A DNA stretch of 64,000 nucleotides from IMG/VR virus record IMGVR_UViG_3300045988_149975; one strand, given 5' to 3'. Positions 20,845-46,991 of this stretch are shown piece by piece (positions within the stretch are counted from its first letter, which is position 1; the number at the start of each line of letters is the position of its first letter). Under the pieces are notes generated by a model. That model was not told the DNA's origin. It saw only the letters and a program-made list of their open reading frames with translations, and searched no databases. The stretch is from a virus. A program made the translations under genes and the position numbers.

Positions 20845-20852
20845 AACTTACC

Positions 20853-31005: not shown

Positions 31006-31620
31006 CTATTTCAAATACTGTAATGCGGATTTACTTCTTAAAGTTGTTTTCCGCACATCTTCACCTGTAATATCAATCTTGATATACTCACTTAACATAG
31101 AAAATACTGTATTTCCATACCTTGTCTTAATAGTATTCAAATCTAAATTTGTACAAATTATTGTAGGTAAACCTTTTGAAAATCTTTGTTTTAAAAGTTC
31201 CTCTAATAATGATTTTTCAGAGGAACTTTTAAGATTGACCTCTGCTCCTAATTCATCTAATACTAAAAAATCGACATTATAATAAATATCTACATCCTCA
31301 TTATTAAAAGTCTTTGAAATTAAATCCTTAAAGGTCAAAAGTCTTGCAGTATAATAACAGGAATAAACATATTGTAAGATAATAGAAGAAGCATAAGTTT
31401 TTCCAACACCATTACTACCACTTAAAAGAATACAAATGTTATCTCTATACATTTCATCACAATGACTTGTATAACCAGTCAATACCTTTTTGAGTCCCTC
31501 ATTTGTAAACCTAAAATCTTTCCATGTCAAACCTTGATAAGTAACAGGAATACCCATTAAAGTAAGTGCTTCACTACTAATAACATCTCTTGTTCCTCGT
31601 TTAAAATTCAATAGTAACAC
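31006..31620 (-). CDS. DnaC/IstB-like AAA+ helicase loader
   Basis: Walker A LSGSNGVGKTYA, Walker B FLVLDELG. 204 aa. Confidence 0.65.
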   Translation of the reverse strand: MLLLNFKRGTRDVISSEALTLMGIPVTYQGLTWKDFRFTNEGLKKVLTGYTSHCDEMYRDNICILLSGSNGVGKTYASSIILQYVYSCYYTARLLTFKDLISKTFNNEDVDIYYNVDFLVLDELGAEVNLKSSSEKSLLEELLKQRFSKGLPTIICTNLDLNTIKTRYGNTVFSMLSEYIKIDITGEDVRKTTLRSKSALQYLK

Positions 31621-32041
31621 CTTCCTTAACTGCTTCCCTACCCCTTACAGGGGTTTCTTTATAGTTATTATACCACCTAATTGCCTTATTGTAAATACCA
31701 TTTAACCATTTATTGGATAAAAGAAAAAGCCCATAAGATGTATAATTTAATACACCATCTTTAGTATAAATTCTCTCATCACTATCCCAAAGATAATCCA
31801 TCATTATTTTAATCTCACTACTCTTAAAATTCTTCATAAGACTCTTAATAATTGCTCGGTCACTGTATTTAACAGGAACATAAATAATATCTTTTTCCTT
31901 TGCTTTAGTTTTCCAGTATTTCATAAAATCATCAGCAGTATAGTTTTCTACATCTAAAGCAGATTTTAAAACACCCTCTGCTTTAGATGTAACTACTGCT
32001 TTACCAAATAAAACTTTGCTCATTGCTTTATTATAAAACAT
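31601..32041 (-). CDS. hypothetical protein
   Basis: 146-aa ORF. Confidence 0.45.
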   Translation of the reverse strand: MFYNKAMSKVLFGKAVVTSKAEGVLKSALDVENYTADDFMKYWKTKAKEKDIIYVPVKYSDRAIIKSLMKNFKSSEIKIMMDYLWDSDERIYTKDGVLNYTSYGLFLLSNKWLNGIYNKAIRWYNNYKETPVRGREAVKEGVTIEF

Positions 32042-32232
32042 TAGCCTTGCAGCCCCTTAAATTCTTCCTCTAATACATTATCAATTTGAATAGAAAGTCT
32101 TTGAATTTCTTTTTCCCAATCCTTCTCATCTACAATAGTTTCAAAACCACATTCAACTCTTGCACTTTCATAATTACCCATATTTACTGTTTGACTTTTT
32201 ACTAATCTAATTAATCTTTCACCTTTATTCAT
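32041..32232 (-). CDS. hypothetical protein
   Basis: 63-aa ORF. Confidence 0.35.
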   Translation of the reverse strand: MNKGERLIRLVKSQTVNMGNYESARVECGFETIVDEKDWEKEIQRLSIQIDNVLEEEFKGLQG

Positions 32233-32629
32233 CTAATAACTCCCTTTCTAATGCTTCTTTAATTGCTAATTGTAATCTGCTCTTTAATACATCATTCCAA
32301 GAACTTTTCTTATCTGCTCCACACTCAATAAATGTGAGTACAATAGCTTCAATCATTGCCCTTGTATAATAAGATTTTCTATTAATAATAATAGGACTTT
32401 CAGGTAAAATACCATTTTTACGCCATAAATTAATAGTTTGATAAGTTCGTGGAATACCATAAGCAGAAAAGGCTTCTACTAATTTAGCTGTAGTATAAAC
32501 CCTTAATTCTTTTCCATTAACCTTAATAATTCTGCCAATAGTTGCCCAATCTTTAAAATGCTGTGCGCAAAACTCCTTATTCGATTTCTTCTTCCTGCGT
32601 TTCCGCTTTTTCGACTGCATAAAGTGCAT
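32225..32629 (-). CDS. hypothetical protein
   Basis: 134-aa ORF with a basic N-terminus. Confidence 0.4.
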   Translation of the reverse strand: MHFMQSKKRKRRKKKSNKEFCAQHFKDWATIGRIIKVNGKELRVYTTAKLVEAFSAYGIPRTYQTINLWRKNGILPESPIIINRKSYYTRAMIEAIVLTFIECGADKKSSWNDVLKSRLQLAIKEALERELLDE

Positions 32630-33020
32630 AACTCTCCTTTTGCTTAAACATTTTACTCAAATCTTCTTTATTTATTGTACCATCTTTTATATAATTTGTC
32701 AAGACATTTAAGTCATACTGTGGTACAAAAGTTACTACCTTATCATAAATGTGCAAGCGTTTAAGAATAGGGTCAGCCATAATTGGGTCAATTTCTTTAG
32801 TAATTCTTAAAGCATTTTTAAAGTTACCATTAGAAGTTTCAATCCAATAGTTGCCACTACCATCCCTATTTACAAACTTGTCCTTTAATAACTCTTTAAT
32901 CTCCTTGCGTCTTTTCTCTGCCATTGAAATAGTTTTTGTATACATTACATATTCATCGTACAAAGTATCTAAATCAATTTTCTTTTCTTCCTCCACTACA
33001 ACCACATCTATTTTTTTCAC
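32577..33020 (-). CDS. hypothetical protein
   Basis: 147-aa ORF. Confidence 0.4.
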   Translation of the reverse strand: MKKIDVVVVEEEKKIDLDTLYDEYVMYTKTISMAEKRRKEIKELLKDKFVNRDGSGNYWIETSNGNFKNALRITKEIDPIMADPILKRLHIYDKVVTFVPQYDLNVLTNYIKDGTINKEDLSKMFKQKESYALYAVEKAETQEEEIE

Positions 33021-34528
33021 TATTCTACCTCCATATTAAATATACCCATGTTTTTATAAAAAATATCTCTCTTATAACCATGATAACAAATACCTGATAC
33101 AAAAGGATGACGATAATCATAAAAGATTATTTTTTCTTTTCCTTCCTTTGTACGTCTTAATCTGCCTATTATTTGAATTAAATCTTTTTCGTTAGCTACA
33201 CTTGATACTAAAAATCCTACTTCCCATGACTTAACATTAGTACCTTCAGTAGCTATTGCAACAGTAGCTAATGTTACTAATACTTCTTTACTCTCTGCCT
33301 TTCTCAAAACCTCTTCTTTAGAGTCGCCCATATTACCATAAAATTTTTGAATTTTGGGGCAGGAAGGTAAGAGCATTTCATATAGATTATCTAACTGCTC
33401 AATAGTCTTACAGAATACTACACAGGATTTTCCCTCATTATAGTTCTTTTTAATATCAGCACATATCATCCTATTAAAGTTATCATCATTAGCAATTTTA
33501 GCGTATGCTTCATGTAATCTTAAAGGATAGGCTTTTATCTTACCTAACGCTTCAAGTTCTATACACATATCACGCCATTCAGGAGTCCCTTCTACAAATT
33601 GATTACCTTTATACACAAAACTATGTACGTCCTTCAAAGTTTTAACATCATAATAATATTTCTTATAATACCATTTCACATTACTCTTTCTTACCTTTAT
33701 GAGTATGTTTTCAGGGGCTATTATAGCGTCAGATTTTAGTTTTGAGCCGTCAAAAACGGTTGCCCCACAGATTATATCTACCACATCAACAAGCCCGTCA
33801 TTTCGCATTTTTGTAGCTGTAAGCCCTAACCTGAACATTGCAGGAAAATTAAATAATACTTTATAACTTGCTGCGCCAACATGATGTACCTCATCACAAA
33901 TAATAAAACCAATATGCTCATAAAGCTGTTTAAGTTTAACTTCACCTAAACGAGAGAGAGTTTGTATTGTAGTAAGTGTAAAATGCTTACCAAGTTTAAA
34001 TACTTTTCCTTTTACAAGTCCTACATCAGCTTCTCCATTATATGCAAGTTCAATATCCTTTTTCCACCCTTCAATTAAATCATCTTTATTAACAACTATA
34101 AGAGTGCTTTCAGACATTCGCCCTGCAAGATAAATGCCACAAAGACTTTTTCCGCTACCAGTTGGTAATACAAGAGTTCCGTATGGATAATTACTATTTA
34201 ACCACGCTTCAGTAGCTTGCTTTTGTATATCCCTTAACTCTAAAACAAATTTAGGAAATCCCACAGTATTTACTACCCTTGAATCATTTACTACCTCAAA
34301 ATCATCTACTTTAAGAACATAACCCATAGGCACTTCAATAAATGCTTTATTATCCTTATAGTAATGCAAATATGGAGGTACTTTTGTTTTAGCATATTTA
34401 CTATATTTTAGTACACTTTCATAGGCAGGATTTTTAAAAGTTAAATCTTTTCTTATCTGCATTTTTTGTTCTTCTGTTAAACAAAATATTCTTTTACAAT
34501 TACTGTATGCTACTTTTATCAATACCAA
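33020..34528 (-). CDS. superfamily-2 DEAD/DEAH-box DNA helicase
   Basis: Motif I LPTGSGKSL, motif II DEVHH, helicase C-terminal region (IIGRLRR). 502 aa. Confidence 0.7.
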   Translation of the reverse strand: MVLIKVAYSNCKRIFCLTEEQKMQIRKDLTFKNPAYESVLKYSKYAKTKVPPYLHYYKDNKAFIEVPMGYVLKVDDFEVVNDSRVVNTVGFPKFVLELRDIQKQATEAWLNSNYPYGTLVLPTGSGKSLCGIYLAGRMSESTLIVVNKDDLIEGWKKDIELAYNGEADVGLVKGKVFKLGKHFTLTTIQTLSRLGEVKLKQLYEHIGFIICDEVHHVGAASYKVLFNFPAMFRLGLTATKMRNDGLVDVVDIICGATVFDGSKLKSDAIIAPENILIKVRKSNVKWYYKKYYYDVKTLKDVHSFVYKGNQFVEGTPEWRDMCIELEALGKIKAYPLRLHEAYAKIANDDNFNRMICADIKKNYNEGKSCVVFCKTIEQLDNLYEMLLPSCPKIQKFYGNMGDSKEEVLRKAESKEVLVTLATVAIATEGTNVKSWEVGFLVSSVANEKDLIQIIGRLRRTKEGKEKIIFYDYRHPFVSGICYHGYKRDIFYKNMGIFNMEVE

Positions 34529-34748
34529 AAAACTCCTTCCTTACTTTAAAAATCAAATCCCAAAGTTTATCACTATCTTTATGTGGTAACATAATTGCCC
34601 TTAAAGAAAAATAAACATCACCCTTATCAGAAAAACTTACAAGTAATCCATCACTATCTTTAATACAAAGCCTTAAATTGTTATTTTCCTCTATAACCAA
34701 CTTTATCACCTCTGTACATATATTACCATACTTTCTACATTTTGTCAA
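34500..34748 (-). CDS. hypothetical protein (true start probably internal)
   Basis: 82-aa track ORF, but its ATG lies inside the promoter spacer. A TTG 6 nt after GAGGTG is a candidate start. Confidence 0.35.
   Translation of the reverse strand: MTKCRKYGNICTEVIKLVIEENNNLRLCIKDSDGLLVSFSDKGDVYFSLRAIMLPHKDSDKLWDLIFKVRKEFFGIDKSSIQ
34720..34748 (-). promoter_or_regulatory. candidate sigma-70 promoter
   Basis: Minus strand TTGACA (34743..34748), 17-nt spacer, TAATAT (34720..34725), right after the terminator. Confidence 0.35.
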
Positions 34749-34754
34749 GTCTTA

Positions 34755-34791
34755 TAAATAAAAAAAGTAACAAGAGATAACTCTTGTTACT
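34755..34791 (-). terminator. rho-independent terminator after the amidase gene
   Basis: 11-bp stem AGTAACAAGAG/CTCTTGTTACT (34766..34776 and 34781..34791), loop ATAA, then TTTTTTTATTT on the minus strand. Confidence 0.55.
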
Positions 34792-35320
34792 GTAAATAAT
34801 CTGTTACACCTCTTGCAATGGCTCTTGCAATATCATCTTTTTTATTTACTAAAATATTTGCATCGTCCATATTATCAATAAAGGCAATTTCTACTAAAAC
34901 GGCAGGCATTGAAGTAGAATTTAATACCACTAAACCTGTTCGTTCTTTTAAACCTCTATCTACTGTGCCAATAGTGCTTACAAGCTGATTTTGTATACAT
35001 TGCCCTAATTTTGCACCTGCACCATATAAACTATAAACACAAGTTTCAGTGCCTTTAGCTTCTGTATTAAAAGCATTACAATGTAAACTAATAAATAAAT
35101 CAGCATAACTATTGGCAGATTCTACAACACATTCCCCTATACCATCATAATTAAGATTATCAGACTGCAAAAGTTTTACCTCAAAACCTGCATTTTCAAG
35201 ATAACCTTTTAACAAATTACCTATTTCAAGAACTGTATCAGCTTCAGTAATACCTAAAATATGATTTACTGCACCTGAATCGATACCAGGGCAATGCCCA
35301 GGATTTATAAAAATCCTCAT
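34787..35320 (-). CDS. N-acetylmuramoyl-L-alanine amidase (Amidase_3-type endolysin)
   Basis: MRIFINPGHCPGIDSGAV...CNAF...E pattern of zinc MurNAc-LAA amidases. 177 aa. Followed by holin-like genes. Confidence 0.7.
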   Translation of the reverse strand: MRIFINPGHCPGIDSGAVNHILGITEADTVLEIGNLLKGYLENAGFEVKLLQSDNLNYDGIGECVVESANSYADLFISLHCNAFNTEAKGTETCVYSLYGAGAKLGQCIQNQLVSTIGTVDRGLKERTGLVVLNSTSMPAVLVEIAFIDNMDDANILVNKKDDIARAIARGVTDYLQ

Positions 35321-35643
35321 TTCTTATCCTCACCTTCCTCTAAAGCGTCAGGAGTACCATTGTTATTAGTATCTACAAGCATACCTAAAATAAAAGTTAC
35401 GAAACCTACCATAGAACCGTCAATTAATATTCTCAAGTATGCTAAAAGTTCTGATAACATCACTTTGTCTAATACAAATAGATATATCCAACAACCTAAA
35501 TATAATAATAAAACAACGGCAACTATTAATATATACCCTATAAGTACATACTTCACAGGTTTAGGCATATTCTCTAAACCTACCCTTAACTTATTAAGAA
35601 GTTCAGGTATTTTAGATTTAATAGTATTTAATAAATTATTCAC
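35317..35643 (-). CDS. holin-like membrane protein
   Basis: 108 aa with 2 to 3 TM helices and a charged C-terminus, adjacent to the amidase. Confidence 0.4.
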   Translation of the reverse strand: MNNLLNTIKSKIPELLNKLRVGLENMPKPVKYVLIGYILIVAVVLLLYLGCWIYLFVLDKVMLSELLAYLRILIDGSMVGFVTFILGMLVDTNNNGTPDALEEGEDKK

Positions 35644-35651
35644 TTTCTCAC

Positions 35652-35972
35652 CTACTTTAAAATACCTAATAAAATTGAACTTATTAAAGATATAATAAAA
35701 GCAATTATAGAAGCCATTCTATATATATTTTCCATTTTATCGTCTAATAATTTAGAAAAATCTACTTGCCTATCCCTATTTAACTTCTTTTCCGTTTCAA
35801 GCCCTCTATCAACACTTTTTAAAGAAACTTCAAGCACGGCAATATCTTTGCCGTGCTTTTCAAGTTCTTTTGCTTTCTCTTTTAAATCTTCAGCAAGTGC
35901 TTTCTGTGCTTGATTTACCTCTGCCAATTTAGAAGTGGCATCTAAAAGAAGTTCTAAAATTTCTTTCTCCAT
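35652..35972 (-). CDS. coiled-coil protein with C-terminal TM anchor
   Basis: 106 aa: KE-rich helix, then IIAFIISLISSILLGIL. Confidence 0.35.
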   Translation of the reverse strand: MEKEILELLLDATSKLAEVNQAQKALAEDLKEKAKELEKHGKDIAVLEVSLKSVDRGLETEKKLNRDRQVDFSKLLDDKMENIYRMASIIAFIISLISSILLGILK

Positions 35973-36002
35973 AAAATCACCACTTTAAATATGGTAAGAA
36001 AA

Positions 36003-36494
36003 TTATGCTACTTTAACAACAGTCATGGAAGCATTAGTAAGTGTTACCGCAGTATCTACCTGTACTTGTAAACTTGCGCCCACATTAGGATTACAAGCAC
36101 ATGGTTTAGCAACCCTAATTAAAGTTGTAAAACTTAAATTATCAGTATCACCTGCTACACCTGTTACAGACGCTTCTGCACCATTTACATCTACACCATT
36201 ATTTACTAATCTAATAGAATATAAACCTGCAACAGTAGGTACTGCATCTACATTTACCTCTACTAAATATATACCTTCTCCACACAAATTAATAGTTGTA
36301 TCAATACCTCTTTGTTGGCACAAATTTTGTACCATTCCTTGTAACTGCTGCTCATTCATTCCCTTATACTGATTCATAATTCCTTGTACTTCGGGATTAT
36401 TACCAAACATCCTCATAAACATTTGTTCAGGATTAGGATTGTTTCTTATTTGAGCCGCCATTTGCAGAACCTGCATTAGTGATTGGTCTAACAT
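36003..36494 (-). CDS. hypothetical protein
   Basis: 163-aa ORF. Confidence 0.35.
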   Translation of the reverse strand: MLDQSLMQVLQMAAQIRNNPNPEQMFMRMFGNNPEVQGIMNQYKGMNEQQLQGMVQNLCQQRGIDTTINLCGEGIYLVEVNVDAVPTVAGLYSIRLVNNGVDVNGAEASVTGVAGDTDNLSFTTLIRVAKPCACNPNVGASLQVQVDTAVTLTNASMTVVKVA

Positions 36495-36909
36495 TGCCCA
36501 TCTCTCCTTTCAGCTTTTCAACATCATTTACAAGTTTTCTCAAAGTATCATCATACTTCTTAAAATACTCTTCAGGTTGAACATTTGTAGGCTGATACAA
36601 TTTATAGGTTAAGAAATCTGATGTACCATTTGCTAAATTATACTGTTTAGTATAAATCTCTCCTTGAGATACATTAACAAATACATACATACTACCATCT
36701 AAATCTACTATTGCCGCCTTTGCCTCTTCAAGAGATGTTACAGGCAATGCCTTTAAGTACACTCTTGCAGATTGATTATTAGGAACATAATTAGACAAAC
36801 TGTTTAGACCAGGACTTGTTTGTCTATTCATATCCCAATTATTATAATTAACGCCATTATTAGGCGCAGGGTAACTAAAACCATTTCCATAATTATTATT
36901 ATATAGCAT
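36433..36909 (-). CDS. hypothetical protein (N/G/Y-rich N-terminus)
   Basis: 158-aa ORF overlapping the previous one by about 60 nt. Confidence 0.35.
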   Translation of the reverse strand: MLYNNNYGNGFSYPAPNNGVNYNNWDMNRQTSPGLNSLSNYVPNNQSARVYLKALPVTSLEEAKAAIVDLDGSMYVFVNVSQGEIYTKQYNLANGTSDFLTYKLYQPTNVQPEEYFKKYDDTLRKLVNDVEKLKGEMGNVRPITNAGSANGGSNKKQS

Positions 36910-36974
36910 AATTTCTTACCTCCATAATACTATTATACCACACTTTGGCAAAATTGCCACACTCATTTTCAATA

Positions 36975-37259
36975 CTATTTTAACATCTTATCAATAAGAA
37001 TTTGTATCTCTTTAGGATATAACTCATAGTCATCATTCATAAGGCGTTTCATTTCAAGCCTTGAAGTGCTTAATAAATTACTTGCGGATTCATAGGTAAG
37101 AACCATCTTTTCTGATATATCCCAAAGACTATCTTGATTTACATATTTTAACATTAATATTTCTTCATTTCTTCTATGTAAACCAAGAGCAGGTATTAAT
37201 GTTTTTAAGGTATTTACATTAGCCAACTTTAACTTTCTACTAAACTCCTTCTTATCCAA
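36975..37259 (-). CDS. small HTH protein resembling sigma-70 region 4
   Basis: LHRRNEEILMLKYVNQDSLWDISEKMVLTYESASNLLSTSRLEMKRL matches the region-4 HTH pattern. Immediately downstream of the RT gene. Confidence 0.4.
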   Translation of the reverse strand: MDKKEFSRKLKLANVNTLKTLIPALGLHRRNEEILMLKYVNQDSLWDISEKMVLTYESASNLLSTSRLEMKRLMNDDYELYPKEIQILIDKMLK

Positions 37260-37261
37260 TC

Positions 37262-38551
37262 TTATGCCCCTAATTTTTCCACAATCTCATCTTTTGTAAA
37301 ACCAAGGTTTTTATAAAGACTCCGTGGATTTTCTACATATTCGTATTTTAAAATGGTAGTCTTACCATTTTCTTCCATTGTTTCATATTTAACTGTATCT
37401 GTATTCTTGCCTGCTTTTTCTACCTCACCTGCATAAATCCAAATATAATCATCAAATAATAGATTACCCCATAAAGGCTTCCAAACTTCCTCGTTGAAAT
37501 TTTCTGCCATATAATAGTAATCCTCTTTAGAACTTAATACTTTTGGTATACCTCTCATTAATAACTCAATCCTTTCTTTAACAGAATCTAATTTTATACT
37601 TTTACGAAAATTATAGGTATTTGCCCACTTCATCCAACCTTCTATACTGGCTACCATACCTCTTGCATAGTCCAAATCTAAATCAGCAGTCTTTAATAGA
37701 CTATCCAATTTTCTAAACCTGCGTTTTATCCTTTTTGCTGTACTCTTTCTTAATAAAACACAGTTGTTAGGAAATGTCCTATAACCAAGAAAGTCTACAC
37801 CTTGCGTTATAGGAAATACATTACTTTTACTTAATAACAGGTTTAACTTATCATAAGCAAATACCTTCGCTTTTTCAGCTACCTCATGTAACTCCTTCTT
37901 ATCATTACCGAAAATTATAAAATCATCACAATACCTTATATATGCACTACATTTTAAATCATACTTTATATAAGTGTCTAATTCATTCATGTATAGATTA
38001 CCAAACCACTGTGAAAGATAATTTCCAATAGGTACGCCCGCCTTTCTATGACCAAATTCCTCTACATATCTTTCAAGTTTTCCACGCATTATATCAGCAT
38101 CTTTACGCCCTTCAAAATTCTTCAAATAACCTATATTAGCTTCTCTTGTTGCAAGGCTATCTATTATTATATCAAGAATACTTAATAAATCTTTATCTTT
38201 AATCTTTTTACGCAATATTATTTTCAATATTTCATGGTCAATATTTACATAAAATTGTGAAATATCAAGTTTAGCACAATACTTATACTTTCTTACATAT
38301 TCAGAGCATTTTATCATTCCCTTATGCTGCCCCTTACCTTTACGACAAGCATAACTATCATATATAAATAAACTATCCCAAATAGGCTCTAACACATTCA
38401 TTATAGCATGATGTACTATTCTATCAGGATAATATGGAAGTACATAAATTAAACGCAATTTAGGCTCATACATTGAATAAATCCTATAAACGGAGTTCTT
38501 ATAATTTCCATCCATTAAATCTTTTTGTAATGATAATAGGTTAGCTTCCAA
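37262..38551 (-). CDS. reverse transcriptase of a diversity-generating retroelement
   Basis: RT motifs in order: RIYSMYEPKLRLIYVLPYYPDRIVHHAIMNVLEP (1/2), LDISQFYVNIDH (A), KAGVPIGNYLSQWFGNLYMNELD (B'), YIRYCDDFIIFG (YxDD). 429 aa. Lies 3' of a TR/VR pair. Confidence 0.8.
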   Translation of the reverse strand: MEANLLSLQKDLMDGNYKNSVYRIYSMYEPKLRLIYVLPYYPDRIVHHAIMNVLEPIWDSLFIYDSYACRKGKGQHKGMIKCSEYVRKYKYCAKLDISQFYVNIDHEILKIILRKKIKDKDLLSILDIIIDSLATREANIGYLKNFEGRKDADIMRGKLERYVEEFGHRKAGVPIGNYLSQWFGNLYMNELDTYIKYDLKCSAYIRYCDDFIIFGNDKKELHEVAEKAKVFAYDKLNLLLSKSNVFPITQGVDFLGYRTFPNNCVLLRKSTAKRIKRRFRKLDSLLKTADLDLDYARGMVASIEGWMKWANTYNFRKSIKLDSVKERIELLMRGIPKVLSSKEDYYYMAENFNEEVWKPLWGNLLFDDYIWIYAGEVEKAGKNTDTVKYETMEENGKTTILKYEYVENPRSLYKNLGFTKDEIVEKLGA

Positions 38552-38604
38552 ATTTTCTCTTACTTTAATAACCTCTGATAAATTTCCTTTACCTTTTCCT
38601 GCTT

Positions 38605-38910
38605 TTAATTCAGCAATTTTAAGATTTTCAATATCAATAATTCTATTCCAAAGATTTCCATATCTTCGTATTTGAAAAACACCCTCTCTATTAAAAAGTT
38701 TAACAAATTGGCACTCTTTATAAAGAGTGCCAAAATGCTATTTAGGTATTTAGGTAAATTGATTTTCGCCTTAACTACTAACCCCTTTACCATCCTGTAA
38801 TGTGTTTCTGCTTTCGCAGAGGATAGAGATTCAGCCGAAGGATTAGCTTTATACCTATTGTATGATACCTTCGTATCACTACAGCTACGCTCGCCGTTGT
38901 TAGAGTTCAC
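38605..38910 (-). CDS. questionable ORF in the DGR spacer
   Basis: 101-aa ORF overlapping the TR 3' end and a 12-bp-stem hairpin (38707..38732). This region is normally a structured non-coding RNA in DGRs. Confidence 0.2.
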   Translation of the reverse strand: MNSNNGERSCSDTKVSYNRYKANPSAESLSSAKAETHYRMVKGLVVKAKINLPKYLNSILALFIKSANLLNFLIERVFFKYEDMEIFGIELLILKILKLLN

Positions 38911-38992
38911 ATTCGCTGAAGCATTATTGACATTAACTGAACGAGAACTGCAACTCGAACTGTTATTCCAGTTACTGCCGAGTTTCGCCTTT
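38877..38992 (-). repeat. DGR template repeat (TR)
   Basis: 116 bp aligning with 39151..39266. About 32 mismatches, every one at a plus-strand T of the TR, which is an A on the transcribed minus strand, changed to C, A or G in the VR. Confidence 0.8.
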
Positions 38993-39124
38993 ATAACCTC
39001 TACCCTTTTAGTTGCAACTATTTATATATATAAATTGGGGGTACGAGATGGTTGTCTACATTACCTCTCCAAGTTTATATCAACTTAAACACCACATTAA
39101 CTTGAATTAATGGGCTACGCCAAC

Positions 39125-40186
39125 TCAATTCCCAAGTTTATGGAGCGGCTCACCACAGCCACGCCCGCCGCTGAAAGAGTCCACAAGCGCCGAAGCACCA
39201 TTGACATCAACCGAACGAGAACCGCAACCCGAACCGCCACCCCAGAGACCGCCGAGCCTCGCCCTGTACAAAGTACCATAGCTTCTACCATAAGACTGGT
39301 CATCTACACCACTATTATATACAGAATCATTCCAACCACTTGAACCGTTTACACCAACATCACTTGCCCATTGCCATAAGAAACCACAAGCATCTTCAAG
39401 CCCATAATTACTTATCATTCTTCTGCCCGCTGTATCAACGTGTCCACCAGTTGTATTGGCATCTGTACTACCTTGTATATTAGTACCTTCATTACTTCCT
39501 TTTGCCGCCACCTGAAACTCATATCTCCACGGCAATCTTTTCTTTATATCAGCAAGTCTTTCTACAAACTGTTCACCATGAAATTTCTTTGTAGAAGCAC
39601 CATCTGCTGTTGTTCCACCATTTACACTCACAAGTTTACTTCCATTCCACGAGTTTAAGTAAATGTCCATCCATATATCTACTTCAGGAATATAAACCAT
39701 TCCTTCAGGTGAACATTTTGGGCGATGAATTAAATCCCATACTGATTGTGGTAATATATCACCTGCTACATAACCACTTAATGTATGCCCGCTTATCGTA
39801 CCCACATTTGTACATAAACAATGGAAACCACCTATTTTTCTACTATTATCTGCATTATAACCATTAGGTACAGTAGAATTTAAAGATAATACAAAATCTA
39901 ATCCATTATTTTCTACTGCATACACATAAACATCTTTACCGTTTCTATTTGCCAAACTTAAAGACAATGTTTTATCCATATCAGTAGAGTATACATTATC
40001 ATTTATTCTTAAAACCATCCCCGCAGGTATTGTTACAGTAGTCTTATTTGTAGTCATTAAACTTTTTCTATTAAAATAAGTATCAATATACTTTGCCAAA
40101 ATTTCTTCACTAAAATTTTCACCATCTATTAAAGAGTTTAAATATGCTCTAATTGTTTCTACCCTTAAATTATTTAATTTATCCAT
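39125..40186 (-). CDS. DGR target (variable) protein, probable receptor-binding tail protein with a C-type-lectin/FGE-like C-terminus
   Basis: 353-aa ORF in the tail-fibre region. The C-terminal Gly/Cys-rich segment (GGLWGGGSGCGSRSVDVNG...GGRGCGEPLHKLGN) carries the VR. Confidence 0.65.
   Translation of the reverse strand: MDKLNNLRVETIRAYLNSLIDGENFSEEILAKYIDTYFNRKSLMTTNKTTVTIPAGMVLRINDNVYSTDMDKTLSLSLANRNGKDVYVYAVENNGLDFVLSLNSTVPNGYNADNSRKIGGFHCLCTNVGTISGHTLSGYVAGDILPQSVWDLIHRPKCSPEGMVYIPEVDIWMDIYLNSWNGSKLVSVNGGTTADGASTKKFHGEQFVERLADIKKRLPWRYEFQVAAKGSNEGTNIQGSTDANTTGGHVDTAGRRMISNYGLEDACGFLWQWASDVGVNGSSGWNDSVYNSGVDDQSYGRSYGTLYRARLGGLWGGGSGCGSRSVDVNGASALVDSFSGGRGCGEPLHKLGN
39151..39266 (-). repeat. 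DGR variable repeat (VR) at the 3' end of the target gene
   Basis: See TR. Lies inside the last 50 codons of ORF 39125..40186, ending about 25 nt before its stop. Confidence 0.8.
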
Positions 40187-40197
40187 TATCTCACTCC

Positions 40198-40470
40198 TTA
40201 AACTTTCAATTTATAGTAATACTTACCACTTATAGGCTCTTCCAAAACAATATTATTGCTGCTTGTATCATATAAAACAGAATTATTATTACTATCTACT
40301 ACTGCAAGCGGTAATCTTTCTGCCGTTACTGCTAAAGTATATACATCCCCACTTTGTGTAAAATCATCGGCAGAAAAAGACTGTGACTCTGCTGTACTTC
40401 CACTACTGCCGCTATTTGCTACATTTATAAGTTCCCAAGTTACAGAACCATCTACAATTAAACTACTCAT
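40198..40470 (-). CDS. hypothetical protein
   Basis: 90-aa ORF. Confidence 0.4.
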   Translation of the reverse strand: MSSLIVDGSVTWELINVANSGSSGSTAESQSFSADDFTQSGDVYTLAVTAERLPLAVVDSNNNSVLYDTSSNNIVLEEPISGKYYYKLKV

Positions 40471-40482
40471 TTTATTTCCTCC

Positions 40483-40710
40483 TTATATAATTAAGAATAA
40501 ATACCATACCCCTAAAACCGCACCTAATATTATAAAATACTTTATGTATATTAAAATATAAAGCGCAATTAAATCATACATGGTCATTACATGGGCAGAG
40601 GTACGATTACTAATACAATAACTAAATACTATACAAACTATTACTGCTAATACAAACCATACTGCTAATGCTATCTCTAAAACCCCAATCATTCTTCTAC
40701 CTCTTTCCAT
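40483..40710 (-). CDS. small membrane protein (2 TM)
   Basis: 75 aa, hydrophobic. Confidence 0.4.
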   Translation of the reverse strand: MERGRRMIGVLEIALAVWFVLAVIVCIVFSYCISNRTSAHVMTMYDLIALYILIYIKYFIILGAVLGVWYLFLII

Positions 40711-41399
40711 CCTTGCGGATATGCTTCAGGACTCCATACATTATTATCTATTACACTTTCATAAATTTTTCCATTGAATTTTACTTTGTCACCTTTCATA
40801 TAAGGATTAGTTGAAGATGGTTGCTCCCAATCTAATATTTCTCCCTCACTTGTCAGCACTTTTGCAAATAAAGAGGGCGCAGAAGTTGGTGTCCATCCTT
40901 CTTGAGATGTATGATTTTGTAATACTTTGTATAATACATTATTATATAATACTTTATCACCTACTACATATTCTTTACTATTACCATTCCAGTGAGGGAA
41001 TACTTCGGTCATTTTTAACGCCGCTCCATCACTAATAGAACGCAGTTTAGTTTGATAAGTATTCTTTGTTTCTACTAAATCATCATCTGCTAATGACATC
41101 ATCATAGCATTTATGGCTAAAGTTTGTAATTCATTTTTTGCTGCCGCTGCTTCTTGTTCATCTAACTCATCTTGTGTTGGCACATAAGGTGGCTCTTCTT
41201 CATAAACTACTTCACCATCTACTTCCTTGCGTATATACACTTTACCATCCGTATTACCTATAAGTAATTGATAATCTTCCTCATTAATCTCTATATAACC
41301 TTCATCTAAAAGTTCTTGTATTCTTTCTTCTGTCATTTCTTCTTTTACATAAGTTTCTTGACGATTTCCATTTTCATCGAACTTAATAATATATGTCAT
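40689..41399 (-). CDS. hypothetical protein (possible tail-fibre assembly or accessory protein)
   Basis: 236-aa acidic ORF immediately downstream of the tail-fibre cassette region. Confidence 0.4.
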   Translation of the reverse strand: MTYIIKFDENGNRQETYVKEEMTEERIQELLDEGYIEINEEDYQLLIGNTDGKVYIRKEVDGEVVYEEEPPYVPTQDELDEQEAAAAKNELQTLAINAMMMSLADDDLVETKNTYQTKLRSISDGAALKMTEVFPHWNGNSKEYVVGDKVLYNNVLYKVLQNHTSQEGWTPTSAPSLFAKVLTSEGEILDWEQPSSTNPYMKGDKVKFNGKIYESVIDNNVWSPEAYPQGWKEVEE

Positions 41400-41460
41400 A
41401 TTATCATTCCTTTCTTTCAGTTTTCATAATTTATATGCCCATCATCAGAAAGTATATCTT

Positions 41461-41529
41461 TGGACAATCTCCAAAGGTACTAATGGTTGGGCGAGGGAGA
41501 GTAGCACAGGATTCACAATTCAATGGGGG
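41461..41529 (+). repeat. inverted copy of the tail-fibre junction (encodes WTISKGTNGWARESSTGFTIQWG)
   Basis: 31 bp (41462..41492) identical to the reverse complement of 42572..42602 in gene 42322..43755. The next 37 bp encode the same peptide with different codons (version 1: GGATTCACAATTCAATGGGGG). Confidence 0.7.
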
Positions 41530-41750
41530 AGAGGCACAACATCTTCAAATTGGAATACAAAAATTTTTTTAATAGAAGTTTTAGTAGTATTTATACTATA
41601 AATTTAGATATTTATAATCCTAATGGTAGTCCTGCAAGTGGGGTTTATCAGGACAGCGGCGGTATTACGTATTTTGATAATGATGGTTTTTACGGCGGTT
41701 TTTCACGAGTTGGTTACACGTTTTTTTGGATAGCAGTAGGTATATCTTAA
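41530..41750 (+). other. silent tail-fibre C-terminal cassette D (promoterless, +1 frameshift in an A5T7 run)
   Basis: Encodes ...FNRSFSSIYTINLDIYNPNGSP...GYTFFWIAVGIS*, homologous to the A, B and C tails (FPRxFxT motif, W-x-A-x-G-I-S end). The reading frame changes between the junction copy and the cassette at AAAAATTTTTTT (41559..41570). Confidence 0.55.
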
Positions 41751-41751
41751 T

Positions 41752-41801
41752 GTTTGCTGAAATGCAATTTTTAAAAATTTAAAAATTGCATTTCAGCAAA
41801 C
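41752..41801. repeat. 50-bp perfect palindrome (23-bp stem, 4-nt loop)
   Basis: GTTTGCTGAAATGCAATTTTTAA-AAAT-TTAAAAATTGCATTTCAGCAAAC. Sits between the convergent ends of cassettes D and B. No flanking U-tract. Confidence 0.9.
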
Positions 41802-41821
41802 AAATTAGCTTATTCCAATGG

Positions 41822-42070
41822 CTATCCAATTACATCTATTAAACCACGGGCTACCCCCATATCTTGTTGATATAAGTAAAATCCACTTTTATCTACAGTT
41901 CTTACTTGAAATTCTCCATCATATCTTGAGGGATTATTAGTATCAGTATTTACTAAACTTACCATCATAGTATAATAAGTAGTAAAAGTTCGAGGAAAAT
42001 TGAATTTACCAATTTGTTGTTCAGATGCACTATTAGTGCCTACTACTTGCCCCCATTGAATTGTGAATCC
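41822..42070 (-). other. silent tail-fibre C-terminal cassette B (no start codon, preceded by an in-frame stop)
   Basis: Reverse complement encodes *GFTIQWGQVVGTNSASEQQIGKFNFPRTFTTYYTMMVSLVNTDTNNPSRYDGEFQVRTVDKSGFYLYQQDMGVARGLIDVIG*. The junction uses DNA version 1 (plus 42050..42070). Confidence 0.65.
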
Positions 42071-42101
42071 TTAAAAATTCACTTTATAAACCCCATTTTA
42101 T

Positions 42102-42329
42102 ACTGGTTTTACTATACAATGGGGTTCAACTGGTACTTTAAGCGGCACTGCAACAATTTCTTTTCCTCGCACATTTTCTACTGTTTATCAAGTTATACCT
42201 GTCGGAAATGTAGAAGAAACAAATGAAAACTGGGGTTTCCCATTAAATGAACGTCCTACAACAAAGAATTTTAAAGCTGCACATTGGTATAGTGGTCAGT
42301 GGAGATACATTGCAGTAGGAATTAGCTAA
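42102..42329 (+). other. silent tail-fibre C-terminal cassette C (no start codon, preceded by an in-frame stop)
   Basis: Encodes TGFTIQWGSTGTLSGTATISFPRTFSTVYQVIPVGNVEETNENWGFPLNERPTTKNFKAAHWYSGQWRYIAVGIS*. The junction uses DNA version 2 (GGTTTTACTATACAATGGGG, 42105..42124). Its stop lies in the palindrome GGAATTAGCTAATTCC shared with gene A. Confidence 0.65.
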
Positions 42330-43755
42330 TTCCAATAGCATACCATAATAAATATCCTCCTGTAGTATACATTTGACCCCAAAGCCAATTAAAATTTGTT
42401 GTAGAAAAAGATTTTATACGGGAAGTATATTTTTCGTCATTAGTATTTAAACCTGTTTGTGTTAAATATACTCCATATAAAGTTGTAAACTTTCTGGGAA
42501 AAGTTGTAGTACCGGCTACTGCTTTGCCTGTAGTTCCCCATTGTATAGTAAAACCAGTAGATGATTCACGTGCCCAACCATTAGTACCTTTGGAGATTGT
42601 CCATCCATTATTAGTAATACTACCACTTCCGCCGCCGATTCCTGCACCATCAGCAGGGTCAGGTGAAGGCTGTGTACTTCCTGTTGTACCTGCTACTTTA
42701 CATACCAAAAAACAACCTGCATATTGCTTACCTACAAGTTTACGCACTGTATCTCTTGTAACAGTTTCATTAGGCTGCCAATATCCAGTATCTACATCTG
42801 TTAAAACTCTTTTCCATACATAATTAGTATCTTCACTTGCTGTATCAATAGAAAATTGCAATACATAATTTACTGCATACCCATTTCCACTCTCTGTTGT
42901 AATCTCATAAAAAACATGATTAGTATGCGCTCTTACTACTGTCAAATTACCAGTTTGAGAAGGATAATTATATGTATTACCTTCCCCACCAATTCCCACT
43001 ATGAGCATTGAATTTGCAGGTAAAGCATTACCTATTGCATAAGGTGAATTATCTAATACTCCCCCGCTTAACCCTATTTGACTTAATTGACTATAAGTCT
43101 TAATATTTGTTAAATCATTAAGCGATTTTTTATTTACCACATCATAATCATTTACAGGGCTTTTATCTGTCTGTAAACTTTTAAATAATGTAGGGATTAC
43201 ATTCATATCACTACCTAAAGTTACTAAATTCGTAACAGATGTATTTACCACAGGGGCAATCCACTCTTCTGTTGTATAACCACTTACCCATAAAGTATCT
43301 GCATTACCAGTTGTTAGTTTTAAGCCCGCATATTTTATATTATTATATGTAAAAGTACAAGGCTCTGCTTTGGCATCATCACTATTTGTAGTATTAAAAT
43401 TTACATTACATTCATTAGAATTGTGTACTTTTTGTAAATTAATGTCACAATTTACCGCTGCTGTACTACCATTTTTAGTAGACATTACTACCTTCAATGA
43501 GCAAGCAGAGAATTTTGCAATATCTATATTATCTAATACTGCTAAAGGCAATACCTGTGTAGTACCTGTTCCTAAAGTTGTTTCATGAATTAAGAATTTA
43601 GCATTAGTTCCTTTAAACTGTACAGGCATTACCTGCCAACGAGAAGCATCATCTACATATTCTTTTAAAGAATTAAAATTCTCATTTAATAAAGGGGCAA
43701 GTTCTGTATCTACATATTCTTCCCCTGTAAAAATGTGTAAATCTCCTAAAGCCAT
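42322..43755 (-). CDS. tail fibre / receptor-binding protein with an exchangeable C-terminal domain (expressed copy, cassette A)
   Basis: 477 aa. C-terminus ...WTISKGTNGWARESSTGFTIQWG-TTGKAVAGTTTFPRKFTT...GGYLLWYAIGIS*. The junction peptide and 31 bp of DNA recur in inverted orientation at 41461..41529 and 42102..42124. Confidence 0.7.
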   Translation of the reverse strand: MALGDLHIFTGEEYVDTELAPLLNENFNSLKEYVDDASRWQVMPVQFKGTNAKFLIHETTLGTGTTQVLPLAVLDNIDIAKFSACSLKVVMSTKNGSTAAVNCDINLQKVHNSNECNVNFNTTNSDDAKAEPCTFTYNNIKYAGLKLTTGNADTLWVSGYTTEEWIAPVVNTSVTNLVTLGSDMNVIPTLFKSLQTDKSPVNDYDVVNKKSLNDLTNIKTYSQLSQIGLSGGVLDNSPYAIGNALPANSMLIVGIGGEGNTYNYPSQTGNLTVVRAHTNHVFYEITTESGNGYAVNYVLQFSIDTASEDTNYVWKRVLTDVDTGYWQPNETVTRDTVRKLVGKQYAGCFLVCKVAGTTGSTQPSPDPADGAGIGGGSGSITNNGWTISKGTNGWARESSTGFTIQWGTTGKAVAGTTTFPRKFTTLYGVYLTQTGLNTNDEKYTSRIKSFSTTNFNWLWGQMYTTGGYLLWYAIGIS

Positions 43756-43767
43756 TCATTTACCTCC

Positions 43768-44961
43768 TTAATCATTATATCTCAATATAATCCATCCGTC
43801 TTGTCCTGGACTTGCACCACCTGCATAAGAAATGCCATTTGCACCATCATGTCCTTTAACCCAAGTCCAACCATCATCACTTTTTCGTGAAACATAACCA
43901 CCACTACCTGCACCACCGCCTCTTGCAGTAGCACCAAAAGCAGTAGTATTTCCACCTGCTGTACCACTTCCTGCACTTACAGGAGTTTCACCTTTTCTTG
44001 TAGCATCACTACCATTAGTGCCACCTTTACCTACTACAAGACTATACTTTTGACCCGCTGTAACATTTACAGTACCACTTACTAATTCGCCAGTACCGCC
44101 ATCACCACCATAACCTACTCCATGGTAGACATCATCTTGGTCATCATAATCGGCTCTTGCAGTACCACCTGCACCACCACCTGCACCATAAAGTGAATAG
44201 TTTACAGTTTTTACATTTGCAGGGCAAGTCCATTGCTGACTACTTGTAATTTTTAAATAATTTTTATAACCACTATATGTAACCTCTACTTGAAAAGGGT
44301 CAATATACAATGCTGCGTGTTTATTATTATTCTCATACATTCTAATCCACAAATCAAAAGTATTAACGCCGCCTTTTAAGCCAACTTCAATATTCTCACC
44401 TAAAGTCATCCATTTAATAACGCCTGGCATATTACTCTCATCTGCTCTACCTGTACTATAAGGATAGAAAATACTTTCAGCTAATGTATGCTGTCCTGTA
44501 TCTGTTAAAATATCGTTACCAAAACGTGTTTGAAACTGATAAGCAGAGTTTCTTCTATAATTATGATAATCATTGTAACTACCTGCCCATTTAACTTTAG
44601 AAGTTATAGTATATAAACCATCTTCAGGAACATTAACAGTACAACTTAAAACCTTGGCTAAACCATAACTTGCACTCCCGCCTGATATATACTTGTAAAA
44701 ATGTCCTGTAGAAACAAACGGTTCACCTTGTTCAAATGCAGATGTTAAAAAATAGTACCTTATACCGTCTACTATTACACCTGCATTTACACTCATATCA
44801 GAACGTGTTGTAGTAAGAGGAGCATAAAGATCTTTATTAAATGTTTTTATCCGTACATATTTTCCATTATAAAAATCTCTATAATCATCATATAAAGGGA
44901 GGCTATGTTTTGCTGAACCTATTGTTAAATTTAATCTTGTTTTTGTATCTATATTAGCCAT
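43768..44961 (-). CDS. glycine-rich tail fibre protein
   Basis: 397 aa with long G-rich runs (GAGGGAGGT..., GYGGDGGTGE, GGGAGSGG) typical of fibre shafts. Confidence 0.5.
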   Translation of the reverse strand: MANIDTKTRLNLTIGSAKHSLPLYDDYRDFYNGKYVRIKTFNKDLYAPLTTTRSDMSVNAGVIVDGIRYYFLTSAFEQGEPFVSTGHFYKYISGGSASYGLAKVLSCTVNVPEDGLYTITSKVKWAGSYNDYHNYRRNSAYQFQTRFGNDILTDTGQHTLAESIFYPYSTGRADESNMPGVIKWMTLGENIEVGLKGGVNTFDLWIRMYENNNKHAALYIDPFQVEVTYSGYKNYLKITSSQQWTCPANVKTVNYSLYGAGGGAGGTARADYDDQDDVYHGVGYGGDGGTGELVSGTVNVTAGQKYSLVVGKGGTNGSDATRKGETPVSAGSGTAGGNTTAFGATARGGGAGSGGYVSRKSDDGWTWVKGHDGANGISYAGGASPGQDGWIILRYND

Positions 44962-44965
44962 AACC

Positions 44966-45574
44966 TTAACTCCCTATAAAAATAGTATTACCATTAGTAG
45001 AGGTAAGTGAACCATCATCATTAAATACAGCCACATTATCAGGAATTACAGAATCATTGAGTTTCCCTTTTGATACCAAAACAGGAATCTGCCCTTCCTT
45101 TACGCCTAAATTTAATACACCTGTAGGAATTTTTCCATCTGCCCCTACCTGTACTATTTGATTAGCCTTTGTACCAGTATCAATTAAAGATGTAGCTATA
45201 TGGTTATTATCACCTACAGCTACTAATTGCCCATTTTCAACACCAGTATACATTAATGACATTTTAACTTTTTTAGTAAGAGGGTCTATCAAATTATCTA
45301 CCCTACTAATATCAATGTGCATACTATCAACATATTCTTTATCTACATAAGTTAAAGTAAGCTGCGCTATCTTAACCCATAATCTATCATGTACATTCGC
45401 TAAAACATATAATGCTAACTCATCTGTCCTAAAACACGCTTGCCCTAATTCCAAATTAGAAACTGGAAAGCTAATACCACTATTCTGTGATAAAAGACTT
45501 TGCCAGTTTTCATTCATTGGTGCAAGAGAATTAGCTATTGTCCATTCCTCTTGTATTGTCTGAACATTTTGCAA
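44966..45574 (-). CDS. tail fibre or baseplate-associated protein
   Basis: 202-aa ORF in the fibre cluster. Confidence 0.4.
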   Translation of the reverse strand: MQNVQTIQEEWTIANSLAPMNENWQSLLSQNSGISFPVSNLELGQACFRTDELALYVLANVHDRLWVKIAQLTLTYVDKEYVDSMHIDISRVDNLIDPLTKKVKMSLMYTGVENGQLVAVGDNNHIATSLIDTGTKANQIVQVGADGKIPTGVLNLGVKEGQIPVLVSKGKLNDSVIPDNVAVFNDDGSLTSTNGNTIFIGS

Positions 45575-45577
45575 TTC

Positions 45578-46249
45578 TTACTCCCCCTTATACGCAAATT
45601 CACCAAACAACTCTTCTCTTAACTCTTTAGCGACTTTTGCTGCTTCCTCTTCAGTGTCATAACTGCCACCATAAAAACGCTTACCATCTTTGCTACAATA
45701 CGCTTTCCATTTACCCGTTTCCTTATTATAAGAATAACCCTTACGCCTATGATTCATATTGTTTTGCCTTACTGTACAAATTCTTAAATTGCACTTCCTA
45801 TTATCTGCTTTATCGTGGCTAATATGGTCAACTATCATTCCTTCAGGGCAATCCATAATAAACCTGTTTAAACGAATATGTGTATGTGTAGTTTGCCAAT
45901 AACCTTTAGAACCTAATGTAAAATAATGCGGTTTTACTTTCTCAATATCCTCCGTATCTATTAAAGTATAATTTCCCTTATTATCATACATTTTTGTAAC
46001 TTCACCATCTATATAATATGTGTTATAAGCCCTGTTCTTTAAAGAAATTGCCTTTCTCATATTACAACCACAAGAAGTTGTACTACCTTGTCTTAAAGAA
46101 CGATATATAACAGGTTTTACATTTCCACAATCACATTGACATAAAACCTGCGCTTCAGTATTGCCTGACTTTGTAATCTTGTCAGGCAATAATCCAATAA
46201 TTTCCATTCTACCATATCTTTCCCCAATTTGAGGAATAATCTTTCTCAT
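45578..46249 (-). CDS. HNH homing endonuclease with AP2 DNA-binding domain (free-standing, inside the tail cluster)
   Basis: HNH core VDHISHDKADNRKCNLRICTVRQN. AP2-like C-terminus GYSYNKETGKWKAYCSKDGKRFYGGSYDTEEEAAKVAKELR. Confidence 0.7.
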   Translation of the reverse strand: MRKIIPQIGERYGRMEIIGLLPDKITKSGNTEAQVLCQCDCGNVKPVIYRSLRQGSTTSCGCNMRKAISLKNRAYNTYYIDGEVTKMYDNKGNYTLIDTEDIEKVKPHYFTLGSKGYWQTTHTHIRLNRFIMDCPEGMIVDHISHDKADNRKCNLRICTVRQNNMNHRRKGYSYNKETGKWKAYCSKDGKRFYGGSYDTEEEAAKVAKELREELFGEFAYKGE

Positions 46250-46262
46250 ACCTACACCTCCA

Positions 46263-46991
46263 TTAGTAACCTCTACTTGCCCAAGAAATCGTGCCCGCTA
46301 CATATTCACTACCCATTTTCATTGTCACATCAAATGATTTAGTAGTAATATTATAAACAATTATTGTAGGCGTTCCATCAATTCCACTATAAGATTTAAT
46401 AGTAGTATTTACATCAGGCACAATATGTAAAGGTCTTGTAAATTCTACTGTATATGGCTGATTATCTTCCGTAAGTTCTGCAATGCCTGTTTCATAAGTA
46501 TCTGGGCAGTCTATTTTATGAATATAAGTTCTTGCATTAGGTCTATCAGCATTTAAACTTGCTTGCATTACAAACTTACAAAGACATTTTTGATAAATAT
46601 AATCACCTGTAATTAATTCTTTCCATTTACCATAACCAAATGGAGTAATTGTTTCATCCCAATTAGTTTCATTTAATACCTTGTTATAAAATCTAATGTC
46701 ACCAATTACTTGCCCCGCATTTGATACCTTCAAGAAACCTACATCTAAATTAATAGGCACATTTTTAGTAAAATTATTTACTACTGTGGTATCCATATTA
46801 ACATTAATATTAAAATTTCTTATAAAAGCGTTAGTTGTAGTAAATGGTAATTCTACATCTAAAGTATCTAACCATGTATTTAAATATTCTATACCATTTA
46901 CATCTTTAATCTTATAGTGTAATTCATTCATTTTAAAAGGCAATTCAATCATTTTATAACTTCTCGCCTTTTGACTGATTACAACACTCAT
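46263..46991 (-). CDS. tail-associated structural protein
   Basis: 242-aa ORF. Confidence 0.4.
   Translation of the reverse strand: MSVVISQKARSYKMIELPFKMNELHYKIKDVNGIEYLNTWLDTLDVELPFTTTNAFIRNFNINVNMDTTVVNNFTKNVPINLDVGFLKVSNAGQVIGDIRFYNKVLNETNWDETITPFGYGKWKELITGDYIYQKCLCKFVMQASLNADRPNARTYIHKIDCPDTYETGIAELTEDNQPYTVEFTRPLHIVPDVNTTIKSYSGIDGTPTIIVYNITTKSFDVTMKMGSEYVAGTISWASRGY

Follow-up and report, generated by a model that had tools for sequence, protein, structure and literature searches.

Organization of the Locus

The virus record IMGVR_UViG_3300045988_149975 of the IMG/VR database, a 64,000-nucleotide stretch analyzed here over its full length (the window), carries between 37262 and 40186 a set of minus-strand elements with the features of a diversity-generating retroelement (DGR). 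In the order of transcription these are a gene for a tail protein resembling Mtd of Bordetella phage BPP-1 (39125..40186), with a variable repeat (VR; 39151..39266) near its end; a template repeat (TR; 38877..38992); a structured spacer RNA (38738..38877); and a gene for a reverse transcriptase (RT; 37262..38671) whose last 98 codons form a separate acidic module (37265..37558). An initial annotation made from the letters of the sequence had proposed a DGR at this place, and several of its details are revised below.

A repeat scan of 36500..41000 detected a single large direct repeat (38876-38989 versus 39150-39263; 114 nt, 77% identity), all remaining pairs being 36 nt or shorter; the TR and VR lie where the annotation had placed them, the VR near the end of gene 39125..40186. 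Both are 116 nt long and on the minus strand. The TR contains 35 adenines, with 10 AAY codons and a further 8 AGY or GAG codons, and the VR spans codons 307-345 of the target gene, inside the last 47 of its 353 codons. In an ungapped minus-strand alignment the two repeats differ at 28 of 116 positions, and all 28 are adenines in the TR (21 A>G, four A>T, and three A>C), with seven of the 35 TR adenines unchanged in the VR; the hypergeometric probability of 28 out of 28 mismatches falling on 35 adenines is 1.1e-20. The annotation's central observation, that every difference falls at a minus-strand adenine, is therefore upheld on realignment, although its count of roughly 32 must be lowered to 28. 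Stop codons can be reached by mutation from the two 5'-most TR codons only, and the theoretical repertoire of the TR is 4^35 DNA variants, or ~10^18.4 protein variants. No second VR was found in a search of both strands of the window for TR-like sequence tolerating A>N, which returned the TR and the VR only.

Homology between the repeats ends three bases 3' of the repeat, at the first mismatch that is not at an adenine (T38875 in the TR, G in the VR). This boundary (39146..39151, minus strand), at which the VR reads GAGCCG and the TR GATACG, resembles an initiation of mutagenic homing (IMH) element. Relatives of the locus, numbered L001-L054, are DGRs of gut and environmental Firmicutes phages known from metagenomes; the difference between GATAC in the TR and GAGCC in the VR, including the T>G change, is common to the window, L001, L002, and L003.

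The target gene encodes a putative receptor-binding tail protein of 353 amino acids with matches in Pfam, PHROG, and PDB. It exceeds the gathering score of the Pfam family for the second domain of Mtd (PF21916; 1.5e-22) and matches the tail protein family phrog_11262 (5.9e-61); residues 43-344 align with residues 67-374 of Mtd (phmmer, PDB 1yu0, 8e-20), and six sequences from Mtd crystal structures match with values of 8e-20 to 7e-18. At the level of sequence the product is a full-length homolog of BPP-1 Mtd. The alignment spans the C-type-lectin domain, in agreement with the receptor-binding fold that the initial annotation had thought consistent with this tail protein.

Reverse Transcriptase

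The RT gene (37262..38671, minus strand) encodes 469 amino acids when read from an ATA codon at 38671..38669, and its core takes up residues 1-371 (37559..38671). Family matches are to Pfam RVT_1 and phrog_1423; the sequence IGNYLSQ is a DGR-type motif 4 ([I/L/V]GxxxSQ), and the YCDD motif is also present. Among solved structures the BPP-1 DGR RT (bRT; 8ub7) is nearest by sequence (E 1.8e-45), whereas the top-scoring group II intron RT reaches 5e-15. An AlphaFold model built from 40 sequences (predicted local distance difference test [pLDDT] 90.6) retrieved bRT structures as all of the top five Foldseek matches, with target-normalized TM scores of 0.75-0.90; the similarity of predicted fold to bRT is put at TM 0.87-0.90.

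NCBIfam models of group II, Drt, and retron RTs give weak, sub-threshold matches, which could be taken to mean that the enzyme comes from another retroelement (a group II intron, a retron, or a defense RT) and that the repeat is an unrelated duplication. All of these matches are far under their cut-offs (121.6 versus 300 bits for group II model TIGR04416, 41 versus 235 bits for the retron model, and likewise for Drt), bRT leads by 30 orders of magnitude, Rfam shows neither an intron RNA nor msr/msd in the window, and the A-only mismatch pattern (p 1e-20) is not that of an unrelated duplication; this origin is vanishingly improbable and already effectively refuted. The assignment of the enzyme to the DGR type made in the initial annotation agrees with this placement nearest bRT.

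An insertion of ~35 amino acids, predicted to be helical, lies ahead of motif 4 (window 37900..38020, RT residues ~172-206). It is common to RT homologs P0002-P0010 and P0024 only and is missing from other relatives and from bRT.

Structured RNA around the Template Repeat

The TR and spacer together fold with a free energy of -102.5 kcal/mol, versus -73.7 +/- 4.5 kcal/mol for shuffled sequences (z -6.4, single-sequence fold), and an RNAalifold consensus of three lineages contains 17 compensated pairs. The spacer RNA 3' of the TR (38738..38877, minus strand) is described by a 140-nt covariance model, R1, which recovers it in 34 loci with RT identity down to 39% and GC contents of 35-57%; in all 34 it lies immediately upstream of the RT and ends at the RT start. 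No Rfam family reaches its gathering threshold in the window, and the spacer RNA matches none.

Several elements can be recognized on the minus strand. Just 5' of the TR, 38995..39005 forms the 5' strand of a bracketing helix with 38821..38831, with compensatory changes in L002. A GNRA hairpin (38807-38820), with AAACA after it, adjoins this helix, a candidate 6-bp priming duplex (38868-38873/38836-38841) is located four bases past the TR end, and the spacer RNA model includes an extended hairpin at 38753-38791. By analogy, these elements appear to correspond to parts of the BPP-1 bRT-Avd ribonucleoprotein, namely the TR-bracketing duplex ("cPRT Stop"), the adjacent stem-loop with the adenosines that follow it, and the duplex of the TR end with the spacer (TR:Sp). 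On the same analogy, the RNA would prime its own cDNA at about G38836, and the GATA end of the TR would be copied first.

A further, terminator-like hairpin with a T-rich tail (38708..38733, minus strand) separates the spacer RNA from the ribosome-binding site of the RT, and may end the non-coding RNA or attenuate transcription of the RT. The hairpin itself had been annotated, as a 12-bp stem at 38707..38732, but the stem has 11 bp, with a 4-nt loop. It has one compensatory change (G-C to A-U) in L001 and is missing in L002 and L003, and is thus lineage-specific.

Turnover of the Variable Repeat among Relatives

Protein and pattern searches recovered the same phage from other samples in four assemblies (L001, L012, L013, and L014), with 95-99% nucleotide identity to the window. 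Across the RT and the part of the target that precedes the VR, the window, L001, and L013 share 97.2-98.9% identity; 24 of the 116 VR columns vary among them, and 23 of these are TR-adenine columns, so that VR polymorphism at A sites, as expected from the initial annotation, is seen among related genomes. The remaining column is a T/C change that the TR and VR of one genome have in common, indicating that a TR change was copied into the VR. The A-restricted TR/VR pattern recurs in L002 (69% RT identity) and L003 (62%), and the target-TR-RT layout is kept in relatives down to 39% RT identity. From this turnover of relatives' VRs, the DGR lineage is apparently active.

Relatives L001-L054 share with the window the gene order, a Mtd-like target, the spacer RNA, the GATACG end of the TR, and the lack of Avd, the accessory protein of the BPP-1 system. 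They differ in that most have the RT, a small protein here called X, and the module as three genes, whereas the window has no X and its module is fused. Among GenBank phages (50,697 records) megablast gave no DNA match to 36900..41500, and RT identity is at most 40%.

One of the four assemblies (L012, 95% identical) is unusual in that the 5' half of its TR (4581-4696) has the non-A bases of its own VR (4310-4425), with ~10 TR adenines lost; this looks like overwriting of the TR by the VR (gene conversion) or merging of both repeats by the assembler.

A Phage DGR without Avd

The region is very probably a functional phage DGR, encoded on the minus strand, that diversifies a Mtd-like receptor-binding protein and has the known Avd-less TR-RT architecture. 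The proposal of a DGR aimed at a tail protein accordingly holds, on the basis of A-restricted repeats, an RT of the bRT type, a Mtd-like target, and VR turnover in relatives.

Several points weigh against this reading. The IMH-like element is a mere 5-6 nt difference, and 3' of the VR there is no GC-rich hairpin or cruciform, a point in which BPP-1 differs (folding versus shuffles gives z -1.76, not significant). Activity is judged from relatives. The pair counts for the spacer RNA (22 of 23 pairs changed on both sides among 25 distinct sequences; 90.9% of cells paired, versus 35-51% with partners slid by 1-3 columns) come from an alignment that had been fitted to the structure of the model and so overstates pairing, though the slid controls argue against this accounting for the whole effect. 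Finally, the RT has no canonical start codon at its conserved position; if the ATA there is unused, either ~40 conserved N-terminal residues are lost or no product is made.

Comparison with BPP-1 (mtd-avd-TR-brt) supplies both likenesses and differences. In both systems the target is Mtd or a homolog of it, with the VR at the C-terminal C-type-lectin end; the RT of the window is nearest bRT by sequence and fold; the repeats differ specifically at adenines; and the TR lies between target and RT on one strand. In contrast to BPP-1, the window has no Avd, and its RT has 469 amino acids, compared with 328 for bRT, including the ~35-residue insertion and the fused 98-residue module; it also has an ATA start, no GC-rich hairpin after the VR, and an IMH/IMH* pair reduced to GAGCC versus GATAC.

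A mechanism can be proposed by homology with the BPP-1 system. An RNA containing the TR and its structured flanks would be transcribed; pairing of the spacer with the nucleotides immediately 5' of the TR would close the template into a loop; and the short duplex of spacer and TR end would hold the RNA in position to prime its own copying into cDNA by the RT. The RT would then copy the TR faithfully except at adenines, and the cDNA would take the place of the VR in the 3' end of the Mtd-like gene, randomizing up to 25 lectin-surface codons (~10^18 proteins) and so changing receptor specificity.

Avd is a basic four-helix-bundle protein of ~128 amino acids, present in ~74% of DGRs. No Avd (PF05635 or a four-helix-bundle family) is among the matches listed for the 74 small minus-strand open reading frames (ORFs) of the window, which comprise the best 25 of 29 Pfam families and the best 25 of 74 NCBIfam families; the further Pfam families are all weaker than E 0.0045, and a weak Avd-like NCBIfam match could still lie among the remainder. 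None is found among the called genes of 11 related loci, and the 132 nt between the target stop codon and the TR leave no room for an Avd ORF; the initial annotation had likewise seen no obvious one there. DGRs without accessory genes make up 29% of those surveyed by Wu et al. (2018; PMC5758913), and ~20% of DGR RTs have extensions of up to ~150 amino acids with no recognizable motif (Wu et al. 2018; PMC5758913). Since Avd is not universal, its absence does not exclude membership of the DGRs, and the element belongs to an Avd-less clade. It shares with the Avd-less DGRs of "Architecture A1" (PMC5758913) the order target-TR-RT and the lack of avd, HRDC, MSL, and CH1; it differs from these and from C-terminally extended RTs (PMC5758913) in that the extension here is a discrete family of ~100 amino acids, usually encoded by a separate gene. 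CH1 (PMC5758913) is also acidic, but it is 160-169 amino acids long and confined to Bacteroides lineage 3A.

The Fused Module and Protein X

The C-terminal module (RT residues 372-469; 37265..37558, minus strand) begins with MRGIPKVL and is fused to the RT in frame. In L009 and L010/11 it is an ORF of its own, downstream of an RT of ~340 amino acids, with a product of 100-102 amino acids. A profile search of 1.84 billion representative proteins yielded 346 clusters at E<=1e-3; of the 150 best, seven are RT fusions and the rest are stand-alone proteins of <=196 amino acids, mostly 93-115. The module has no match in Pfam, PDB, PHROG, or GenBank phages, and a C-terminal extension that forms a discrete, widespread family of ~100 amino acids was not found stated in the DGR literature compared. 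Its AlphaFold2 model (pLDDT 92) has the order helix-helix-strand-strand-strand-helix-helix, and its isoelectric point is acidic (4.2-5.9), whereas that of the RT core is basic (9.0-10.0). The module was considered as a form of Avd and rejected, being acidic with an alpha/beta fold where Avd is basic and an all-helical four-helix bundle.

A Shine-Dalgarno sequence and start codon ahead of the module are retained in all seven fused genes for which DNA is available (background 9%, P ~4e-8), a pattern in the sequence which suggests that free module protein is still made from an internal start. Viral contigs scanned for the module by itself yielded 39 loci, with a Mtd-like gene beside the module in 36 and a DGR RT in ~30; a scan of bacterial genomes recovered four (in Sporomusaceae, Schwartzia, Faecalibacterium, and one metagenome-assembled genome of an uncultured bacterium), two of which (L052 and L054) have an RT beside the module. 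Target and module are kept without the RT in four independent contexts, the RT-less relatives being L034, L035, L037, L049, and L050. The RT-less "VRs" in these phages bear the A-site signature, which indicates that the TR-RT cassette was lost from them, and the module has been under purifying selection since the loss (dN/dS 0.15 at dS 0.38).

Two marine-type phages, L037 (5994-5999) and L038 (4755-5999), differ by the precise presence or absence of a 1245-bp segment containing TR and RT, with 85% identity on both sides; the cassette site lies between the target stop codon and the module ATG. Similar pairs are L050 versus L046 and L035 versus L043.

Two roles for the module have to be weighed. 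It may, as we tentatively hold to be quite possible, be a mechanistic accessory of the DGR that acts with the RT, instead of Avd or in a different manner, so that the window would represent a natural fusion of RT and accessory. In-frame fusion to the RT C-terminus in several diverged lineages, with a position zero to two genes downstream of the RT elsewhere, points in this direction, as does the DGR RT adjacent to the module in 35 of the 43 loci retrieved by module alone. Avd is present in no locus of the clade, and GenBank phages, including BPP-1 with its Mtd and Avd, have no homolog of the module, so Mtd as such does not need it. The acidic isoelectric point and alpha/beta fold, on the other hand, do not fit a basic RNA binder like Avd; the linker in the full-length model of RT and module is of low confidence (pLDDT 69, predicted TM score 0.74); the module stays under purifying selection beside a Mtd-like gene after loss of TR and RT; and the internal start signals in every fusion suggest that it is the free protein that counts.

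These last two observations would suit a protein associated with the tail or with Mtd, for example an assembly chaperone or adaptor, with the TR and RT lying upstream by chance and the fusions being tolerated read-throughs. This reading is conceivable, but we regard it with some doubt. It would account for the Mtd-like gene that adjoins the module in nearly all of the viral loci, for the RT-less contexts, and for the cassette's coming and going between target stop and module ATG in L037 and L038; the module also sits where a fiber chaperone gene usually lies, and the conserved internal ribosome-binding site would permit independent, higher expression. Repeated in-frame fusion to an RT would, however, be unexpected for a structural chaperone; no homolog stands beside Mtd in phages of the BPP-1 type, and the module has no similarity to known tail-fiber assembly families. 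The RT-less contigs are moreover partial, and their genomes may have an RT elsewhere.

Between the RT and the module gene, all unfused loci (n=22) have a conserved small protein of ~95 amino acids, X, whose start overlaps the RT stop codon (for example, L010:5010-5306, L030:5704-5988, and L017:5706-5984). It belongs to no Pfam family and is missing from the window and from fused-type loci.

A broader proposal that returns to an accessory role, and which we advance with reserve, is that the module and X form a previously undescribed accessory system of Avd-independent DGRs; the window would then carry an RT-accessory fusion, with low levels of RT made from the AUA codon and module made also from the internal ribosome-binding site.

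A DGR acting on a Mtd-like tail protein is a textbook case, tens of thousands of DGRs are catalogued, and identification alone adds little. Work on the mechanism and structure of DGR reverse transcription, however, all rests on the bRT-Avd complex, and about a quarter of DGRs have no Avd. The present locus and its ~50 relatives constitute a compact and well-conserved Avd-less system, with an RT of 340-470 amino acids, a strongly covarying spacer RNA of ~140 nt, and one or two small conserved proteins. Reconstituting these components could show what stands in for Avd, and they might give smaller tools for targeted mutagenesis. The presence or absence of the TR-RT cassette offers a handle on DGR gain and loss, and the near-cognate start codon of the RT a handle on regulation. 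The fused acidic module with its gene family, the conserved spacer RNA of the Avd-less clade, and the ATA start deserve further study.

Start Codon of the Reverse Transcriptase

RT homologs start with MKRxGNLW; the same frame in the window reads IRRYGNLW, with ATA in the position of the methionine. A Shine-Dalgarno-like sequence, GAGAGGGTG (38680..38688, minus strand), lies 8 nt upstream of this ATA at the conserved RT start, and in L002 and L003 the start codons, ATG and ATT respectively, have an equivalent GAGGTG motif ahead of them. The codon at this position is ATG in 14 relatives, TTG in two, and ATT in two; ATA is found in all five assemblies of the window lineage. The first canonical start, TTG 38551, gives a 429-amino-acid ORF, the conserved frame runs 40 codons upstream of it, and in L012 this TTG is TTA. 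The 41 codons upstream of the TTG are conserved (L012 has two changes, both synonymous, and L001, L013, and L014 have one synonymous and one non-synonymous change), and the N-terminal 41 residues of the RT are folded confidently in the model. The RT thus seems to start at the near-cognate ATA 38671, and such initiation probably keeps its levels low. The initial annotation had described an RT of 429 amino acids with all RT motifs; the enzyme and its YCDD motif were rightly recognized, but by the conserved frame the length is ~469. An alternative start at the out-of-frame ATG 38661 followed by a frameshift was rejected; the same CATGG/TATGG supplies His/Tyr-Gly codons in relatives with an ATG start.

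Among bacteria studied to date, ATA initiates translation very poorly, and a start at TTG 38551 would drop 40 conserved residues. The DGR of the window could on these grounds be a recent relic in which the RT start codon changed from ATG to ATA 38671, a reading we consider improbable. The ATA recurs in five assemblies obtained independently, in which the VRs follow a TR substitution and have diverged at A sites; a sister lineage has ATT and two others TTG at the RT start position, behind a Shine-Dalgarno sequence; and the 41 N-terminal codons are intact and the entire RT ORF is open.

In the lineage with the ATT start (L003:6001-7662, which is P0004, and also P0003 and P0005) a single ORF spans the TR, the spacer, and the RT. 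Gene callers consequently give an "RT" of 533-553 amino acids in P0003-P0005, the N-terminus of which is translated TR.

Downstream Gene and Phage Context

A gene for a putative helix-turn-helix (HTH) protein of 94 amino acids (36975..37259, minus strand) directly follows the RT. It had been annotated as sigma-region-4-like; the position is as described, the sigma likeness comes through homologs only, and the linkage to DGRs is inconsistent. Two homologs of the protein give weak or sub-threshold matches to Sigma70_r4_2 (1.8e-5 in L008, and 0.028), and the window protein has no Sigma70_r4_2 match. The gene follows the RT in the window, L001-L003, and L012-14, is two genes further downstream in L008, and is missing from other DGR loci. 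A role as a DGR accessory was rejected on account of its distance of two genes from the RT in L008 and its absence from most module-carrying DGR loci; it is probably a gene of the phage backbone and not part of the DGR.

Around the DGR, the window has 30-36% GC and its genes, all minus-strand, include an ORF of tape-measure size, tail genes, and genes for an amidase, a helicase, methylases, and HNH endonucleases; the phage is low-GC and siphovirus-like. No tRNA genes were found in the window by ARAGORN. Genes for QueC and a QueE-like radical-SAM protein (13025..13603 and 18417..19058) belong to the 7-deazaguanine pathway and suggest modification of the phage DNA, and a homolog of SpoVS (stage V sporulation protein S; 19476..19757, Pfam E 8e-24) points to a spore-forming Firmicutes host. 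At 6955..7886 two overlapping ORFs of 123 and 190 amino acids both match the DNA methylase family N6_N4_Mtase and may be a methyltransferase split by a frameshift. GC skew on the plus strand is strongly and uniformly negative over 1..64000 (-0.19 to -0.36), and the long ORFs are all on the minus strand.

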